From positions 32,001 through 96,000 of the forward strand of contig CAVYHV010000015.1 of NCBI GenBank assembly GCA_963768425.1: a DNA stretch of 64,000 nt. Direction: 5' to 3'. This stretch comes from Candidatus Bathyarchaeota archaeon. GTDB taxonomy: Archaea > Thermoproteota > Bathyarchaeia > Bathyarchaeales > Bathycorpusculaceae. How positions within the stretch are numbered: position 1 is the stretch's first letter; each line of letters begins with the position of its first letter. Shown one piece after another: positions 6,190-56,482 of the stretch. The position numbers and the translations under genes are program-made. The notes below the pieces were generated by a model. It worked only from the letters and a program-made list of their open reading frames with translations. It searched no databases and had not been told where the DNA came from.

Positions 6190-8823
6190 ATGAGTATTAG
6201 AAATGCTTCAGCTGCGTCCAAGGTTCAAATTGCAGAAGATGAAAGTTCTCGACCCATTTTCAGCTTAGGTTCTTCTGTCCAAGAAGAAGCCTTGCATATT
6301 TTGCATGTTGATGATGACGCTGTCGCTCTTGCAAGTTTCGAAAATGATTCTGGAGACTGAAAACAACTTCTTGATTGACGTGGCAATTTCTGTTGATGAT
6401 GCTTTAAAAAAATTGCGAATGCACAATCCTACGATGCGATTGTTTCAGACTATGAAATGCCCCTGAAAAACGGATTAGAATTCTTGAAAGAACTCAGGGA
6501 CCAAAACAATCAAATTCCTTTCATCCTGTTTACGGGCAAAGGCAGAGAAGATGTTGCGGTCAAAGCTTTGAATTTGGGCGCTGACAGCTACATCAACAAA
6601 AACGGTTCTCCAGAAACAGTCTACTGCGAATTGGCAGATGCCATAAACAAGACTGTAGACCGCAAGAAGTCAAAGCAACTGCTTGTCGAGTCAGAGATGA
6701 AGTATCGCACGCTGGTTGAAAAATCGCTTCAGGGAATACTGATTACTCAAACTTCTCCGCTGCAACTGGTTTTTGCCAACGAGTCCATGGGAAACATTTT
6801 GGGCTATACTAATGACGAGTTGAAGTCACTTTCACCTTTAGAAATTGCAGGACTAATATATGACGAGGACAAAGCCGTTTTCTTTAGCCGCTTAGAAAGC
6901 CGCATACATGGGGAACCATCGGACTCAAGCCTTGAGTTTAGAGCAGTACGAAAAGACGGATCGATAGTTTGGCTGGAAGCATTCTCAAGCCGCATTGAAT
7001 ATATGGGGCAACCAGCGGTGCAGGGCATGTTTCTGGACATTGATGAACGCAAGAAGGTCAGCGAGATTTTGCGTGAAAGCGAACAAAGATATCGGGAACT
7101 GGCAAATTCTCTGCCGAACATTGTTTATGAATCTGACACAACTGGAAAGCTGGAATTTGTCAATGAGAAGGCACATGAGATTTCGGGCTATTCTCAGGGG
7201 AAGCTTGAAAAAGGGATGAATGTTCTGCAGTTCATTGTTCCTGAAGACAGAGAAAGAGCAATGAAAAATATGGAGCGGTTGTTAGCGGGAGGCAGTTATG
7301 TTCCTGCTGAGTACCTTTTCTTGCGGAAAGACGGAACCACTTTCCCAGCACTTATCACGACAACTCTTCGTATTTCCAAAGACAAGGTGACAGGGCTTAG
7401 AGGCTTGGTAATTGACATTACTGAACCCAAAAAAATGGAGCAAGAATTTAGGGACTTGGCGAAATTTCCTTCCGAAAATCCTAATCCTATCTTGCGCGTC
7501 TCAAAAGACAACCTGGTCTTGTATGTAAACCAAGCTGCAAAGTTATTGTTAAAGGAGATGAACATTGAAATCGGACAACCTACGCCCCTCTTCTTGAATC
7601 AGTCTATTGCCACGACTCTGAATTCAGGTTTTAGTCAGGAGGCTGAGTTTGAGCAAAACCAGCGAACGTACTTGTTTACAATAGCTCCGATAAAAGACGC
7701 TTCTTATGTCAACGTGTATGGACTAGAAATCACCGAACGCAAGAAAGCTGAAGAGGCTCTTAGGCAAGAGCGGGATATGCTTGAGTCAGTTACGTCAGCC
7801 AGCGGTGCTGGTTGGGTAATTGTCAGTAAAGACTACCATGTGTTATGGGCAAACGATTTTATAAAACGATACAAAGGTGACACCATAGGAAAATTATGTT
7901 ATGCAACGCTCAACAGTTTAGATACGCCTTGCCATGATTGCGGGGTCGCAAAAATTTTTGCGGGAAAAACAACATTTGACTCCCACGAATATTTCTCTAC
8001 GACTGTTGATGGCAACCCGTACTGGGTTGAAATTGTCGCTACCCCCTGTACGGATGGGAATGGAAACGTTACGTCCGCAGTGGAGATTTGTGTAGATATA
8101 ACAGAACGCAAGAAAAACGACGAGAAACTAAGAGAAAGCATTCATAAAAACGAATTAATCAATGAGAAACTCAGCGTTGTTGGCAGTTTAACTAGGCATG
8201 ACGTGGGCAACAAACTCACGGTTGTAAAATCCAATATTTATTTGCTCAAGAAACAAATTGGCGACAATCCAAAATTAGCTAAGTACCTTGAAGGCATCGA
8301 CTCTGCAATTAACCTGTCAGATGAGATGTTTGAGTTTAGCCGTTCCTACGAGAAAATTGGAGTAGAAAAACCTTCAAAAATAGATGTTGCCGAATGCTTT
8401 AATCAAGCTATCGCAATTTTGCCTAATTTGTGCACAATAAAAATCATCAATGATTGCCAAGGGCTAGAGGTAATGGCTGATTCGCTGCTTAAGAAACTTT
8501 TCTACAACTTACTCGACAACTCGCTAAAGTACGGGGAAAAAGTCAGGCAGATTCAACTGCACTTCAGTAAAGAAGATGAAGGGATAAAGCTGTTCTACGA
8601 AGACAACGGAGTCGGAATACCCGAAGCTAACAAGCAAAAACTCTTTACAGAAGGTTTCACCACAGGAAAAAGCGCAGGGCTTGGGCTGTTCCTGATAAAG
8701 AAAATGGTCGAAGTCTACGGCTGGACAATAACTGAAGAAGGAGAACCAGCCAAAGGAGCAAAATTTGTAATAACAATTCCTAGGCTAAATAAAAATGGGA
8801 AAGAGAACTTTCAAATTGCGTAA
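6190..8823 (+). CDS. Hybrid receiver-PAS-histidine kinase; receiver domain frameshifted at ~6330-6430, main ORF 6457..8823
   Basis: ILHVDDD and YDAIVSDYEMP receiver motifs, multiple PAS domains, H-box LTRHDVGNKL, N-box NLLDNSLKYG, G-boxes EDNGVGI and GLGLFLIK. Confidence 0.9.
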
Positions 8824-49532: not shown

Positions 49533-49842
49533 AACAACCAAGGGAAAAAACCCATTTCCCCTTTCTTTTTATTTAACTTTTAAGTCAGAATTTTTCAAAT
49601 CGTTCAAATCTTGAAATTGATTTATCGGCAAGGCTATCCCTCAAGAATAATAGTACACGTTGCTTCACGACTCGAAGTGTAAGATTAAATCATGAAACAA
49701 GCTTCGTGCACTCATCGATTTGAAGAAAAATATGTAGTTGTAAGTTTTTAGAGGGCATTTTTTGTCTTTTGCTGTCAGGTAACTTATTTATTTGATGTTT
49801 TTCTATCGTATATCAGTATTCAATGTTGAATGCTTCTTGCAC

Positions 49843-50385
49843 GTGAAAATTAAATATCCAAAACTCTCGTTGTTCATAATAAGTGTAATCTTAGTGTACT
49901 TCCTTTTTTCTGGATTAGCATACAAACCCTTGCATGATGCCCTTATTTTCATGGGGTATTTTGGAACTTTTCTTGCGGGTTTACTGTATCCCTATGCATT
50001 AACTTCGTCGGCGGGTACAGCGATATTGCTGATTCTCGCTAAAGATCAAAACTTCCTCTTAGCAGGAGTTATAGCTGGAGGCGGCGCTTTGATAAGTGAC
50101 ATGGTTATCTTCCTTTTTGTTAAACATGGCTTTAATGATGAGGTACAAAAACTCTCAAAAGAAAAAGTTGTTCAAACTATTAATCGATGGATACCTGATT
50201 CCATTAGAGTCTACTTGCTTGCGACTTTTGCCAGTATTCTAATTGCATCGCCGCTTCCAACTGAAATTGGTATTATGCTAATGACATCAATAAAGAACAT
50301 GTCTACCAAGAAATTCGTAATAATTGTGTATATCCTGCATGCAAGCGCAATCTTCATAATTCTTCTAATTGGCCGCATTGTATAA
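49843..50385 (+). CDS. Hypothetical membrane protein
   Basis: Multiple TM segments; IASPLPTEIG motif. Confidence 0.7.
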   Translation: MKIKYPKLSLFIISVILVYFLFSGLAYKPLHDALIFMGYFGTFLAGLLYPYALTSSAGTAILLILAKDQNFLLAGVIAGGGALISDMVIFLFVKHGFNDEVQKLSKEKVVQTINRWIPDSIRVYLLATFASILIASPLPTEIGIMLMTSIKNMSTKKFVIIVYILHASAIFIILLIGRIV

Positions 50386-50660
50386 TTTGGAGAGTCAAGA
50401 CTTTTTTTGCTTAAGGGTAACAAAGTCAGGCCTTTTAATGTGTTTTTCTATAAGAGATAGTTTGAGTAAAGACGCCTCGTGCAGCGTCATATGTGCTTTT
50501 TGACTGCGCCAAACCCCGCTTGTGCCTTATAGCACCTAAAGATCTCTTAGCCAGGTTTTCACTTAAACGCTTTCAATTCACTTTGCCTTTGTCGTCTAAA
50601 AACTGATAAGTAACATATCCTCTATACCATTAAGGCAAAAATGGAGGATGAGAAAATAAA

Positions 50661-50792
50661 ATGCCAAAATTAACCTTTACCGTAAGCCATGAAAACGACA
50701 AACGATTAAGAGAAAAAGTGCTTAACAGAGGCGACCTATCCTGCATAATAAACGACGCATTAGACCAATACTTCAAGAAAGCGGAACAATAA
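50661..50792 (+). CDS. Small ribbon-helix-helix-like protein (absent from ORF track)
   Basis: MPKLTFTVSHENDKRLREKVLNRGDLSCIINDALDQYFKKAEQ, with GGAGG upstream. Confidence 0.65.
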   Translation: MPKLTFTVSHENDKRLREKVLNRGDLSCIINDALDQYFKKAEQ

Positions 50793-51929: not shown

Positions 51930-52142
51930 TCAAACACTTTTATCAACATTGTAATTTTCCACGCGCTCCATTATCCCCCAATCTACACTTTCTAAAACCA
52001 CCACACTAAGTTCTTTATCCTTATTTACTCTTAATTCTGTTCCACAGCTAGGGCATTGAATTATTTCTCCAACTTCAGCATACTTTAAGAAATCTGCTTT
52101 ATTTGAGAAATCATATCCACATTCAGGACATTTTGCACTCAT
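51930..52142 (-). CDS. LysW/ArgW-like zinc-ribbon carrier protein with aberrant C-terminus
   Basis: CPECG...EVGEIIQCPSCGTELRV...ESVDWG. Confidence 0.65.
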   Translation of the reverse strand: MSAKCPECGYDFSNKADFLKYAEVGEIIQCPSCGTELRVNKDKELSVVVLESVDWGIMERVENYNVDKSV

Positions 52143-52876
52143 GTGTTATACACCTCACAAGCTATGAAGCCGCGTCAATAGCCGCCTGGAAGTCGGCAGC
52201 ACTAGAACCCGTTAAAACATTACGCATGTTGTACGCCAAATAATAATTTGGTTTTGAATTATTAGATTTTATGAATTTCTGATAAGCGTTCGTGGTTAGA
52301 TAACAATAACTCTGGACAGTAGTTGGTAGGCTGGAACTTTGGGTTTGAATGTCTGTTTTTCTCGTCAGCATTCTCTGTTAATAGACGCGGACGTTTGCGG
52401 AGTAAGGCTGTCGCCATTACTCTTAATTTCTTGGCAGGCTTTCTTTCCTGAAGAAAAGGGAAGCGGAGCAAACAAGCGGGGGCGATGCAAAAAGAGCACG
52501 CGTTCGATCTTAATCTGAACGAGAAAAGCGATTACTTTATTATTTTTTGGTTTAGAAAAGTTATTTTACTATTTTGAATTTGCTTTTGCATTCATTACAA
52601 GTGTAGCCCTCAATTACGAAATAGCTGTTCTGTAAAAGCGTTTGAGGCTTTGAAACTTCTTTGTGACAGTTAGGACATTCAGCCACTTAGATCAACTCTC
52701 TCCGTACGTTACAGTACTATATGATATATTAAGTTATGATGTAACATCATGTGACAACACATCAACAATCAAAAATATAGATTAATTATTCAGCTATTTG
52801 GCTTCGATCTCGAGTTTCTTTGAAAATTGCATAAAGTTTATTAAATTTGTACGTTCTCAAGGGGCTGAGGGGTAAC

Positions 52877-53092
52877 TTGTTCGATAGGAAAGAAGCTGTT
52901 GCTTTATTAAGAGAGTTAGGTTTAGAGCATTTAATACAACCTTCTTTCGTCATCCTCAAACAAAGAACACCTAACAGTTACCAATTAGAGATTAAAGGCG
53001 AATATGACCACGAAGAAATTGAGGTCTTTCTAAAGAAAAGAAACTTAACATATCAAGAGAAGAAAGACTATTTAGTTATTTTTAAGCCATAA
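52877..53092 (+). CDS. Small hypothetical protein
   Basis: DRKEAVALLREL...YQLEIK...FLKKRNLTYQEKKDYLVIFKP. Confidence 0.65.
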   Translation: MFDRKEAVALLRELGLEHLIQPSFVILKQRTPNSYQLEIKGEYDHEEIEVFLKKRNLTYQEKKDYLVIFKP

Positions 53093-53112
53093 GGAAAAAT
53101 GATAATAAGTCG

Positions 53113-53238
53113 TTATCTAGTAACTTTGAAACAGCAGTTACAGTTCATACATGTGTAGGCTTCGACACGGAAAAGCTGAGTTTCCAACATTTTGTTAGGT
53201 TCTGCAACTTCTTCGCCACAGTTAGGGCATTTAGCCAT
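53113..53238 (-). CDS. Small zinc-ribbon protein
   Basis: MAKCPNCGEEVAEPNKMLETQLFRVEAYTCMNCNCCFKVTR. Confidence 0.6.
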   Translation of the reverse strand: MAKCPNCGEEVAEPNKMLETQLFRVEAYTCMNCNCCFKVTR

Positions 53239-53601
53239 TTTGATCTCTCGGTACGGTACAATGCCTTCCAATAGAGGAACAACTATTACTTGAAAATATG
53301 TTGGCACACTTTGATACAACAAACAACCAGAACCAGGAGTGTGCGTTTTTTCTCTGCGCTCTTAATAATTTTTGCTTATTGTTTTCTTTATCTGTAGGAA
53401 AAAAACACTATAGGTCTCAAGAGGTCTTACTATGCAGTACTCAACATGCGAAATAAGTCGTCTCTTAAATGCAAGTTTTGGATATCATTTTTCTTAAAAC
53501 CAAGCGTTTATACTATAAAACGATGACACTTCTTTTTGGTTTACAGTTTGCTTTGCAATACAAGACCTTGATCGCAAGGTCGTCTATCTGTCGTCTATCT
53601 G

Positions 53602-54117
53602 TTAATAGAGCGAAGCCACGATTGCAGTTGTGATCTCTTGAATTTGTGGAACCTCTGTTTGTATTTGAGAAATAAGTAGCTGCAGGTCTTTGTTATCGCT
53701 AGTTTTTACCGCGCATATTAGGTCGTAGGGTCCGAAGACCGTATCAGCCGACAAGACTTTAGGTATACCTTGAAGCTTTTCTTGGACTAGTTCAAGATTT
53801 CTAGGTTGAGTATGCAGGAGTAGGAAAGCATACGGTTCCTCAGCAAAAGATTTGCCTTCTGAGATTACAATAAGGGTTTCCGTCTTGTCAATCATTGCTC
53901 CTTGAGCAGAAATTGTTCTAATTGGGTCGAACCATTTGCTGATAAATTCGTCAAGGTTTTTTAATCCGCGTAGTTGGATAAGAACTTCAGCAGGACCAAG
54001 AAGCAAGTATATATCTTTCTTGGATAGACCAATTTTAATCAACTCATCCAAAACTTTGGTTTTAGCGCCCACTTTGCAAGATAACGTATTGCAAGATAAT
54101 ATCATATATACCTTCAT
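53602..54117 (-). CDS. Tandem Lrp/AsnC ligand-binding (RAM) domain protein without HTH
   Basis: LLLGPAEVLI and DTVFGPYDLICAV repeats. Confidence 0.8.
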   Translation of the reverse strand: MKVYMILSCNTLSCKVGAKTKVLDELIKIGLSKKDIYLLLGPAEVLIQLRGLKNLDEFISKWFDPIRTISAQGAMIDKTETLIVISEGKSFAEEPYAFLLLHTQPRNLELVQEKLQGIPKVLSADTVFGPYDLICAVKTSDNKDLQLLISQIQTEVPQIQEITTAIVASLY

Positions 54118-54237
54118 AAAGTGGTCAATAGTATATTGACATAATCAGCTTGATAAGCCTAACGTAATTTTGACTTTAAGAAAGACAAGATAGCACACTT
54201 ATTCTTGCCAATACGAATGTAATGTCCGAGTTGGACT

Positions 54238-54262
54238 TTTGGGCTGGTGTGTTGGTTGTAAC
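54238..54262 (-). repeat. Displaced copy of the RNase P RNA 3' end (att-like)
   Basis: TTTGGGCTGGTGTGTTGGTTGTAAC is identical to 56116-56140. Confidence 0.9.
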
Positions 54263-54723
54263 ACACCTATTTTGGCGAAATTGCCACAGTTTCCCCCTCT
54301 TTTTACTCTTGACCAACTAAAAGATAGTTCTTAATGGAAGCTTTTTCTTTAATGATTTCAACATCCCCTCTTTTACTCGTTTTTTTCGGGCTACTTGTTG
54401 ACTATCTTAAGCACACGATAGGATACTCTCCTCGGTCAGAACTATGATAATTGAGGGTCAAGCGCGCGCAACGAAGACTTGATAGAACTATAACTAAATT
54501 TAGGGAACTCAAATAAATACAATGACATTTTTCAACGTTGAGCTCCTAAAGGAGTTTTAGCGAAACATTACACACCCTCAAAGAGTTAGGAAGTTACATG
54601 AAATCTATGACTAGGCAAATTTCAGATTACGCGATTAATAATATCTTTTTTTAGAAAACATGTTGCGCCTAATTCAGTCAACAAAAAGCTTAAGTAGTTA
54701 TTCAAAACAAAAGGGACTAAATA

Positions 54724-55143
54724 GTGTTCAAGATGACTAATCCTACACCTTTAATAAGTGATTCAAACAGATTAAAATCACAAGGGGCAGCACAGATTTT
54801 ATCAATCGCCATATTCATAGCAGTGATTGTCTTCTCTTTAGCCGCATACTATTATATTAAACGCCCTTTTTGGGTTGCCATCTCCGCCGGTGCCTTAGGC
54901 GGATTAGTGCACGAAATGGTTCAAAGCGGCGGTAAGTATGTTCTTCCAAACACTGACGAAAATGGAGACTTCATGTTGGGTGGCTTAGTTGGATTACTTG
55001 CAGGAGGAATAGCTGGAGTGTTAACATATGAAGCACTTCTAGGAACGACTCCCATTCCATTTCCGGCAATAGCTGTTACCGCCTTCTTGGCTGGAGCAGC
55101 AGTAAAAGGAATAGCAGATGCGGCAAATCCTCCAAAAAAATAG
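54724..55143 (+). CDS. Hypothetical Gly-rich membrane protein
   Basis: Four TM segments; AGALGGLVHEMVQSGGK. Confidence 0.7.
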   Translation: MFKMTNPTPLISDSNRLKSQGAAQILSIAIFIAVIVFSLAAYYYIKRPFWVAISAGALGGLVHEMVQSGGKYVLPNTDENGDFMLGGLVGLLAGGIAGVLTYEALLGTTPIPFPAIAVTAFLAGAAVKGIADAANPPKK

Positions 55144-55423
55144 AGCGTTTACTAGTTAAGCATTACAAAACACAAGAGCTCAAACTGCCTTCTGCAAACT
55201 GCACTATGTGTCATCTTAAGTCTGCAGTTGACTCTTTTAATAACCGATTTTTCCATGAGGAATTACCGCATTATTTTTAGTTTAAAGAACTTGTAAAGTC
55301 CAAATCAACAAAATATTAATGTTTGAGTCCAAAAAGTTTTCCAACAATTTTTAGCGTCACCATATCCCAGGGTGGGAAAGCTTTTATGCTATTCAAAACA
55401 AGATAAAATATAGGGGTTTTGAA

Positions 55424-55978
55424 ATGTCTGTAGAGTCGGGAAAAAATTTGGGCGGCATCGGTTCCATATTCTTGGTGATACCAATTCCATTTCTGAGCAT
55501 CGTTGGCATAATACTAGTCCTTTTTGGAATGAACAACTTATCTAAAGCGTACAACGACCCAAGCATTTGGCAAAACACGCTCTATGCTGTGGTCTTCGGA
55601 ATAATAGGAATAATTGCAGCTGGCTTAACTCTTGTCTCGCTGTTTTTCGGAGGGATTTTCGCTAGCGGTGTTTTTGTAGCGGGCACAGGATTAGCAGGAT
55701 TTTTTGCAGGACTCATCGTATTTCTGGTGGTAGCTTTCATATTCTATATACTTGAAGCTATCTATATCAGAAGAGCATTTGATTCTCTCGCAAACAAATC
55801 TGGAGTTGGGTTATTTAGAACTGGAGGATTGCTTTTGCTAATCGGTGCGGTTCTTACAATAGTTTTGGTTGGTTTGTTCTTAATTTTCATCGCGTGGATA
55901 CTGATACTTGTAGCTTTCTTCCAGATACCAACAAGTTCAATGCCTCCGCAGTCTCAGATGCCACCGCCACCAATGTAG
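55424..55978 (+). CDS. DUF996 family membrane protein
   Basis: KNLGGIGSI...LSKAYNDPSIW...SGVGLFRTGGLLLLIGAVLTIVLVG; Pro-rich tail. Confidence 0.85.
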   Translation: MSVESGKNLGGIGSIFLVIPIPFLSIVGIILVLFGMNNLSKAYNDPSIWQNTLYAVVFGIIGIIAAGLTLVSLFFGGIFASGVFVAGTGLAGFFAGLIVFLVVAFIFYILEAIYIRRAFDSLANKSGVGLFRTGGLLLLIGAVLTIVLVGLFLIFIAWILILVAFFQIPTSSMPPQSQMPPPPM

Positions 55979-56118
55979 TGACCTAAATTTTCTTTTTTTT
56001 CTTCCATGTTCTTAGTCGTTAATTTTTCTTGTGTTAGAGCGCACTAAAAAGAGTTGTTTGGCTTTTGCGTTTGGTGCGTTGGGTTTTTGAAAACCTCTGT
56101 TGTTTACAACAAAGATTT

Positions 56119-56436
56119 GGGCTGGTGTGTTGGTTGTAACCCGCCTTCTGTTGTCTGTGGCATTCGGCTAATCGGGCTACCCGCGCCTTGGGTAGAGTCC
56201 TCATTGGCGACTGTTTGCCCTTTCCACTTGCAGGACGGCCGTTTCACCGGTTCCATGTTGGCGCACTCGACCTCACTAAGGCGTCATCGACAAGTCCAAC
56301 TGGACGTTTCGTTTCTGCTCCGTTGCTAACGCTCTCGCGTTGCTCCTTTTGGGGAGCTGCAATTCTACACGTGGGCGGAGTTTCCTCAGACCCATCATTT
56401 CTTGGGTCCGAAAGCCACACACCAACTCGCCAGCCC
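56119..56436 (-). ncRNA. rnpB: Archaeal RNase P RNA
   Basis: Minus strand contains GAGGAAACTCCGCCC and ACAGAAGGCGGGTTA (P4 pseudoknot halves), GCAGAAACGA, TGAAACGGCCGTCC, and a terminal GGGCTGG/CCAGCCC P1 helix. Confidence 0.95.
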
Positions 56437-56482
56437 AACCAACAACGCACGTTGGCAAGCAATAAGAATTTCTATCATTACC

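Follow-up and report, generated by a model that had tools for sequence, protein, structure and literature searches.

The 3' ends of transfer RNA (tRNA) and transfer-messenger RNA (tmRNA) genes are integration sites of genomic islands and proviruses that depend on tyrosine integrases and that are recognized by the Islander criteria (PMC4383910). A further structured RNA gene is used by phage phiEf11, whose attachment site (attB) lies in ffs, the gene of the 4.5S RNA, and was presented in 2025 as a novel non-coding RNA site (PMC12540744). The targets of archaeal tyrosine recombinases have been reviewed as well; the available part of the review names tRNA genes, intergenic sites and protein-coding genes, and the term 'RNase P RNA' has no occurrence in it (PMC8371274). 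Here, we describe a 1.9-kb island at the 3' end of rnpB, the ribonuclease P (RNase P) RNA gene, in a stretch of 64,000 nucleotides (nt) from a Candidatus Bathyarchaeota archaeon (contig CAVYHV010000015.1, positions 32,001 to 96,000), which is called the window and whose first letter is position 1. The genome that holds the window is referred to as G000, other genomes that were compared carry further G-numbers, and X1 to X4 are public metagenome runs.

Islands at rnpB share several properties with the tRNA/tmRNA islands as described in the available text of PMC4383910, namely an intact target with a displaced direct 3' fragment, an integrase placed at the end of the island in relatives, tandem arrays and an empty site in relatives. 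Unlike those islands, they have the RNase P RNA gene as target and the 3' strand of that gene's terminal helix as core, and the copy in the window is without integrase. As for phiEf11, for which the available part of the report gives an identity segment of about 27 nt (PMC12540744), a structured RNA gene other than a tRNA gene acts as attB; however, phiEf11 is a bacterial phage at one locus, whereas the rnpB case is archaeal, recurs across the class and involves at least three integrase clades. PF00589 domains are likewise found in the classical (pNOB8/SNJ2-like) and the 'suicidal' SSV integrases of integrated archaeal elements, and one of the clades linked to rnpB resembles the SSV-type genes in that its open reading frame (ORF) runs out of the attachment (att) core, as far as these types are described in the available part of PMC8371274. 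In contrast to the SSV type, for which PF16795 is the Pfam family and an att core inside the ORF causes the gene to be split upon integration, the integrases at rnpB match PF00589 and gave no match to PF16795 at an E value of at most 0.001.

Derivatives of integrative elements that are flanked by att sites and lack an integrase are known as cis-mobilizable elements (CIMEs) from the ICESt elements of Streptococcus. As in CIMEs, cargo that lacks a recombinase lies between two att cores, and the arrangement would be derived by tandem accretion and deletion. Unlike in CIMEs, the ends of the window's island come from two element types, and its mobilization in trans is hypothetical.

Island finders that rely on precise ends search tRNA and tmRNA genes. 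A full-text literature search, with subscription papers and supplementary tables outside its reach, did not find rnpB described as an attachment site, and in the available parts of the papers that mention 'rnpB' the gene is used as a phylogenetic or reference marker. 'RNase P' does not occur in PMC10848311 and PMC11705971, which deal with Bathyarchaeia viruses and archaeal proviruses. According to its available part, an island resource sorts sites as tRNA/tmRNA, coding and intergenic (PMC12424338), and with such sorting rnpB islands could be missed or filed as intergenic.

A displaced 3' end of rnpB bounds the island

An earlier note on this DNA had claimed a 25-bp duplication of the rnpB 3' end, and the claim holds: the sequence TTTGGGCTGGTGTGTTGGTTGTAAC (25 nt) is present in identical form at 54238-54262 and 56116-56140. 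With up to 3 mismatches allowed, the 25-mer has 2 matches in the window and 0 in 100 dinucleotide-preserving shuffles, and the whole assembly of G000 (2.96 Mb, 33 contigs) contains no further exact copy. The longer match of 31 nt that had also been noticed (54238-54268 and 56116-56146) has 94% identity. RNase P RNA itself is well defined, as RF00373 matches 56125-56430 on the minus strand with 191.4 bits over model positions 1-288, that is, over the full model and above the gathering threshold of 84; it is the one family found by Rfam in the window, in which ARAGORN found no tRNA genes. The 5' flank of rnpB (56421-56438) base-pairs with 56117-56134, and when 120 genomes of the genus were searched at the DNA level, similarity to relatives ended at 56114-56120. 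The repeat can thus be assigned to the 3' strand of the closing helix, the last approximately 25 nt of rnpB. The features of the locus are the following:

56117-56430, minus strand: rnpB, intact archaeal RNase P RNA gene, by RF00373 and extended to 56117 by the terminal helix; its last approximately 25 nt are the att core
56116-56140, no strand given: proximal core copy inside the rnpB 3' end, attL-like; exact repeat
56055-56115, minus strand: proximal island arm, with a hairpin and a U run directly after the RNA 3' end; homologous to the sequence before 'family B' integrase genes beside rnpB
55424-55978, plus strand: cargo gene of a DUF996 membrane protein (184 amino acids; Pfam) with its own promoter and a T-rich terminator
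54724-55143, plus strand: cargo gene of a hydrophobic protein (139 amino acids); ORF with no family match above the cut-off
54263-54303, no strand given: distal island arm, homologous to arms beside displaced cores in G084, G130, G014, G126 and G085
54238-54262, no strand given: displaced copy of the rnpB 3' end, attR-like and still joined to the ancestral downstream flank; exact repeat, with copy plus flank kept in G084
53602-54117, minus strand: gene of a protein with an Lrp/AsnC ligand-binding domain (171 amino acids; PF01037, 45.7 bits), ancestral neighbour of rnpB outside the island

An intact RNA gene and a displaced direct 3' fragment that together bound an insert are the direct-repeat geometry by which tRNA/tmRNA islands are recognized, and the repeat is a real integration scar. 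We consider it likely that the 3' end of rnpB serves as an attachment site for elements with tyrosine recombinases and that the island in the window is a reduced, integrase-less remnant of two such elements. The integration steps, i.e. core copy, regenerated gene and displaced end, were shown by comparison with relatives. An element would bear a copy of the last approximately 25 nt of rnpB, and a tyrosine recombinase would recombine within this core. Integration would leave an intact rnpB consisting of the 5' part of the host and the 3' end of the element, and the original 3' end of the host would be shifted to the far side of the insert, joined to its old neighbour, the Lrp/AsnC-like gene. 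For the window, two elements would have integrated in turn, followed by an internal deletion that removed the integrases and the middle core, so that in the end state two membrane-protein genes would be framed by two cores. Such a remnant would be unable to move by itself; at most, a matching integrase acting in trans could move it.

The closest relative carries an integrase-bearing island at the same site

In the search of the genus, G084 was the closest relative, with flanks 92-95% identical to those of the window. Three segments of its contig C4 correspond to the window:

G084:C4 12241-12620: window 56500-56120, 97% identity
G084:C4 40321-43020: window 54255-51541, 93% identity
G084:C4 44326-46870: window 51551-49006, 91% identity

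The distance from rnpB to the shared flank is 27.7 kb in G084 compared with 1.85 kb in the window. In G084, rnpB is followed by a 5.3-kb integrase-bearing island, a core, 22.4 kb of DNA, another core and the same Lrp flank as in the window. The integrase ORF of the first island encodes 386 amino acids, ends 33 bp from the rnpB 3' end, matches PF00589 with 65.6 bits and has an N-terminal zinc ribbon (DUF7838). The rnpB-tail copy 5.3 kb downstream is immediately followed by a tyrosine-recombinase-like ORF of 394 amino acids, whose XerA/XerC matches are weak and far below the cut-off. The third core copy (C4 40296-40325) adjoins the Lrp/AsnC-like flank as it does in the window. Since the outer copy of G084 thus has the flank of the window, the displaced copy in the window is the original rnpB end with its old neighbour attached, and the new DNA entered between this copy and rnpB. 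The left flank is syntenic except at window position ~51545, where G084 has an additional segment of about 1.3 kb (C4:43020-44326).

Displaced rnpB ends recur within the genus

The earlier note had proposed to look for duplicated rnpB 3' ends in relatives. For 37 relatives and G000, the last 45 nt of each genome's own rnpB were compared with the DNA up to 20 kb downstream, and a direct copy of at least 18 nt with at least 90% identity was counted as displaced. Such copies were found in 22 of the 38 genomes (27 copies); G002 and G108 have longer copies whose identity of 88-90% lies below the threshold, so that they are not counted. In the same DNA, inverted copies were found in 0 of 38 genomes, and the control segments of the gene gave 0 (5' segment), 0 (one middle segment) and 1 (other middle segment) matches, the single match being part of a longer fragment in G031.

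Integrase-like ORFs were detected with an integrase hidden Markov model (HMM) in 13 of the 37 relatives, and all of them start at most about 520 bp from the rnpB 3' end. In six relatives (G003, G008, G066, G084, G105 and G120) the integrase is a single ORF of 319-434 amino acids, and in seven (G010, G014, G028, G085, G115, G126 and G130) it is broken or partial; thus, decay of the integrase at rnpB is no rarer than its presence. Several of the matched proteins are part of the HMM and therefore match by construction, and those of the seven genomes with broken or partial ORFs are not in the model. Eight proteins match PF00589 above the cut-off, six from the genomes with single ORFs and two from other families (G042 and G055). 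The earlier note had named the lack of any integrase family beside rnpB as an observation that would speak against integration, and such families do exist.

A precise empty site was found among the contigs of four peat and soil metagenomes (Logan contigs of X1-X4, aligned at a likeness of at least 85%). A contig of X3 (430 nt, depth 10.5) passes directly from 53947-54237 to 56116-56249, the 25 shared letters being present in one copy, which is the empty site expected of islands in RNA genes, here in related sequence. A contig of X1 (1749 nt) also has the joint from 54237 to 56116, with 49 diverged letters in between. At least four distinct sequences abut 56116-56122 in X1, X2 and X4, and the proximal junction of the window is crossed by contigs of X2 and X4 (56009-56154 and 56040-56156). 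No contig of the four runs covers 54328-55367, and no weight is placed on this gap.

These observations bear on the proposal that the repeat arose by local duplication, by gene conversion or as an assembly artefact and that the displaced copy was kept as part of the promoter region of the Lrp/AsnC-like gene. The displaced copy does lie about 120 bp upstream of the start codon of this gene and is conserved together with it in G084, G002 and G126. Against this stand the direct copies in 22 of 38 genomes compared with no inverted ones and 0-1 for other parts of the gene, the integrases that abut the site, the precise one-copy empty site and the contigs of X2 and X4, which cross the proximal junction in independent metagenomes. 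We therefore regard an origin without integration as very improbable.

The assemblies of the genus show further peculiarities at this locus. In G023, rnpB was assembled twice (including G023:C13:2418-2718), and contig C4 breaks off precisely where the gene has its 3' end. Many genomes of the genus have rnpB within about 1-4 kb of a contig end, an effect that would be expected from a mixed population at an att site.

The arms of the island resemble those of two island types

The first approximately 60 nt past the RNA (56116 to 56055) are 85-91% identical to the sequence after rnpB in G105, G066, G120, G021 and G131; G028 has 79% identity, and G029 has 93% over 29 nt. This family-B-type proximal arm is followed by an integrase ORF in G105, G066 and G120 and by two integrase fragments in G028. 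It is predicted to fold into a 12-bp hairpin followed by UUUU immediately past the RNA end, and the hairpin may act as trailer or terminator of the regenerated rnpB. The distal arm (54303 to 54263), in contrast, matches arms beside displaced copies in G084, G130, G014, G126 (twice) and G085, and no match to it was found at the displaced copies of the family-B islands (G105, G120, G008, G021 and G131). Window positions 54295-54236 and G084:C4 17873-17931 are 93% identical over 60 nt; thus, the distal arm of the window's island is that of the integrase-bearing island of G084. Integrases of the G084 type or fragments of them are carried by G084, G130 and G014.

According to the standard integration model, DNA beside the intact gene is the latest arrival, and DNA beside the displaced copy is the earliest. 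With a proximal arm of family B and a distal arm of the G084 type, this model implies two successive integrations followed by a deletion. The island would therefore be a decayed composite of two element types, whose integrases and middle core appear to have been deleted, as the arm comparison suggests.

Two membrane-protein genes lie between the copies, as the earlier note had stated. Both cargo proteins (139 and 184 amino acids) contain several hydrophobic stretches. ORF 55424-55978 matches DUF996 of Pfam with 101.9 bits, and the Pfam search gave no family above the cut-off for the 139-amino-acid protein (54724-55143). PHROGs and NCBIfam searches gave no match for either protein, nor for the P-loop protein of 555 amino acids encoded by the G084 island. 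DUF996 orthologues with 82-86% amino acid identity occur in five species in five differing contexts, and the DNA common to these loci is confined to promoter, gene and terminator. Recombination sites at the ends of the approximately 630-bp DUF996 unit were considered as well, but the shared DNA consists only of promoter, gene and T-rich terminator. Similar single-gene units of about 630 bp are present at 49757-50391 (membrane protein of 197 amino acids), 53589-54213 (Lrp/AsnC-like protein of 171 amino acids) and 55372-56000 (DUF996 protein of 184 amino acids); the three units have 77-87% nucleotide identity to many genomes of the genus at scattered loci, with about 70-80% for adjoining core genes.

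The absence of an integrase from the island, also stated in the earlier note, is borne out by the PF00589 and tblastn searches. PF00589 has seven matches in G000, five of them above the cut-off, and 0 on the contig of the window. A tblastn search of 54150-56200 with 36 integrases (E of at most 10) found no integrase in the island, the matches being merely translations of rnpB itself. An integrase inside the island is thus found in relatives but not in the window.

Alternatively, the 1.9-kb unit might be a complete miniature islet, flanked by att sites and without integrase (of the cis-mobilizable or satellite kind), which is moved in trans by integrases encoded elsewhere. Small core-bounded islets without a detected integrase are indeed common (G021, 1.4 kb; G128, 1.3 kb; G098 and G109, 0.7 kb each; G013 and G106, 1.0 kb each), both arms are conserved, and G000 encodes its five PF00589 integrases above the cut-off elsewhere. 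These integrases adjoin no rnpB-like sequence in a 13-mer scan, however, each arm is of a different island type, and no second copy of island or cargo is present beside rnpB in the 37 relatives. One contig of X2 (depth 3.8, side 36) joins 56114 to 54237 and thus 'goes back 1878', as would be expected of a circle junction. The joint is explained equally well by a tandem array in a relative, with distal arm, core and family-B arm in the order seen in G002, and because the arms are common to many islands and such an array gives the same joint, it is not counted as a circle junction. Taken together, we consider a complete islet unlikely and favour the remnant of two elements.

Several points weigh against the latter interpretation. 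No integrase or fragment of one is present anywhere in the island or the window, and integrase action at this locus is deduced from relatives. Neither cargo gene was found within 20 kb downstream of rnpB in any of the 37 relatives; this runs counter to the possibility raised earlier that relatives all carry the two genes without the repeat, but it also means that a full-length parent island was not found there. The history of two elements is read only from homology of the arms over about 60 nt and about 40 nt, and a middle core copy is absent. The contigs with the empty site are about 93-96% identical to the window; since they differ from it by about 4-7%, they come from relatives rather than from the same strain. 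Finally, the best public run holds 0.12 of the sampled words, and both junctions of G000 are those of the assembly. The proposal that an element had targeted rnpB and was later reduced is nevertheless upheld by the recurrent displaced tails, the integrases adjacent to rnpB, the empty site and the arms homologous to integrase-bearing islands.

rnpB integrases occur across Bathyarchaeia and form several clades

In other families of the order, 2 of 13 genomes (G042 and G055) have a copy of 24-25 nt located 4.6-4.9 kb downstream of rnpB, and in both the open frame of a PF00589 integrase begins inside the rnpB tail. A degenerate motif of the tail (21 nt) matched 124 of 401 genomes of the class compared with 1 for a reversed control motif, and 19 genomes have at least two copies on the same strand of one contig. 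Besides further genera of the family, these genomes include members of two additional families of the order, and two of them (G394 and G437) belong to a family beyond it. Rfam found rnpB at one copy in 11 of 14 two-copy regions scanned. G263, G419, G485, G463, G107 and G072 have integrases that overlap the rnpB tail or lie next to it, and a PF00589 match (32.5 bits) lies about 430 bp inside the distal end of a 15.7-kb island in G394. Among 57 genomes of other classes of the phylum (57 of 60 regions; G563 and G611 were left out as too short, and G592 because its sequence came from the other side of rnpB), the test used within the genus found no displaced rnpB copy. In one genome of another class, an integrase-like ORF fragment lies 562-825 nt downstream of rnpB (G528:C11, E 2e-8 to the integrase HMM); the 20 kb at this locus contain no displaced copy.

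Homologues of the G084 integrase were compared at 15 further archaeal loci. At 65-74% identity they are adjacent to rnpB (four loci) and at 33-43% identity adjacent to tRNA genes (six loci); one homologue with 33% identity also adjoins rnpB, and four loci have neither rnpB nor a tRNA gene within the examined stretch. In a quick IQ-TREE analysis of 34 integrases, from which two short rows were dropped and for which one ORF was not picked, the integrases at rnpB fall into three clades:

clade co-directional with rnpB: 10 rows, SH-aLRT 100
G084-like clade, convergent with rnpB: 6 rows, SH-aLRT 100
family B clade: 6 rows, SH-aLRT 95

The tRNA-adjacent proteins and the integrases of G000 itself are located between the co-directional and the G084-like clade. 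The root is uncertain, so that the tree gives no firm number of switches between tRNA and rnpB targets.

In the co-directional clade, an open frame crosses the rnpB core and goes on for about 305-318 amino acids. The length over which this frame stays open upstream of the displaced core is 42 amino acids in G055, 40 in G003 and 0 in G042. In G263 (L096, G263:C12:98500-105934), rnpB is followed by a tandem pair of islands, both of which have their own co-directional integrase ORF starting inside a core copy (1290-2228 and 6355-7275). These tandem ORFs and the open frames in G055 and G003 would fit a gene that might be split by integration. At three further loci, L104 (G013:C1:100000-108500), L097 (G263:C19) and L103 (G473:C23), integrase segments lie between two tail-like cores, and no rnpB was found on the examined stretch; such segments may represent separate replicons, elements integrated at secondary sites or islands that the assembler excised at repeats.

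The region beyond the displaced copy

The small-gene-rich zone at 49.6-54.2 kb had tentatively been proposed as older cargo, an idea that found no support. The zone is syntenic and 91-93% identical in G084 and contains no further core copies: a search for degenerate copies (at least 16 of 25 positions, with a chance expectation of about 0.26 per 10 kb and strand) found none in 44.0-54.2 kb, inside the island or to the right of rnpB. Several species have genes of the zone downstream of rnpB, i.e. those of the Lrp/AsnC-like protein of 171 amino acids, a protein of 120 amino acids and the membrane protein of 197 amino acids. In G084, G002 and G126, the outermost displaced copy is followed by the Lrp/AsnC-like gene, and in G035 and G130 the 120-amino-acid gene lies between rnpB and a displaced copy. 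The zone has a low G+C content of 0.33-0.41 and multi-copy small zinc-ribbon genes, which is compatible with an old variable region. On the basis of synteny, it appears to be conserved flank rather than demonstrable older cargo, although an older mobile origin is conceivable.

A repeated module at 51930-53322 consists of small ORFs with a CxxC...CxxC zinc ribbon (41-70 amino acids; spacing 622 and 552 nt) paired with an ORF of 81 amino acids, and both families have several paralogues each on other contigs of G000. An ORF of 43 amino acids at 50661-50792 has a 97.7% identical copy on contig C6 (171392-171520) and no Pfam match.

Significance

The island in the window is an ordinary decayed remnant; what stands out is the rnpB site, which is hit by at least three integrase lineages across Bathyarchaeia. 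It is tempting to go further, although we hold the following only tentatively and deem it slightly more apt to fail than to stand as a whole. rnpB might be a main hot spot of the entire archaeal class for at least three lineages of tyrosine integrases, two of which are separated by tRNA-adjacent relatives, which would imply repeated switches from tRNA genes to rnpB. Each integration would replace the 3' strand of the terminal helix and supply a trailer hairpin, so that the RNase P RNA of many Bathyarchaeia would be a chimera of host and element, and small integrase-less islets may still move in trans.

If rnpB is a regular landing site, it would provide a simple anchor to map the mobilome of the abundant, uncultured Bathyarchaeia. 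Furthermore, the systems described here would be natural pairs of integrase and att site with a single-copy, essential and conserved target. They would also raise the question of how an essential ribozyme tolerates the repeated replacement of one strand of its closing helix.

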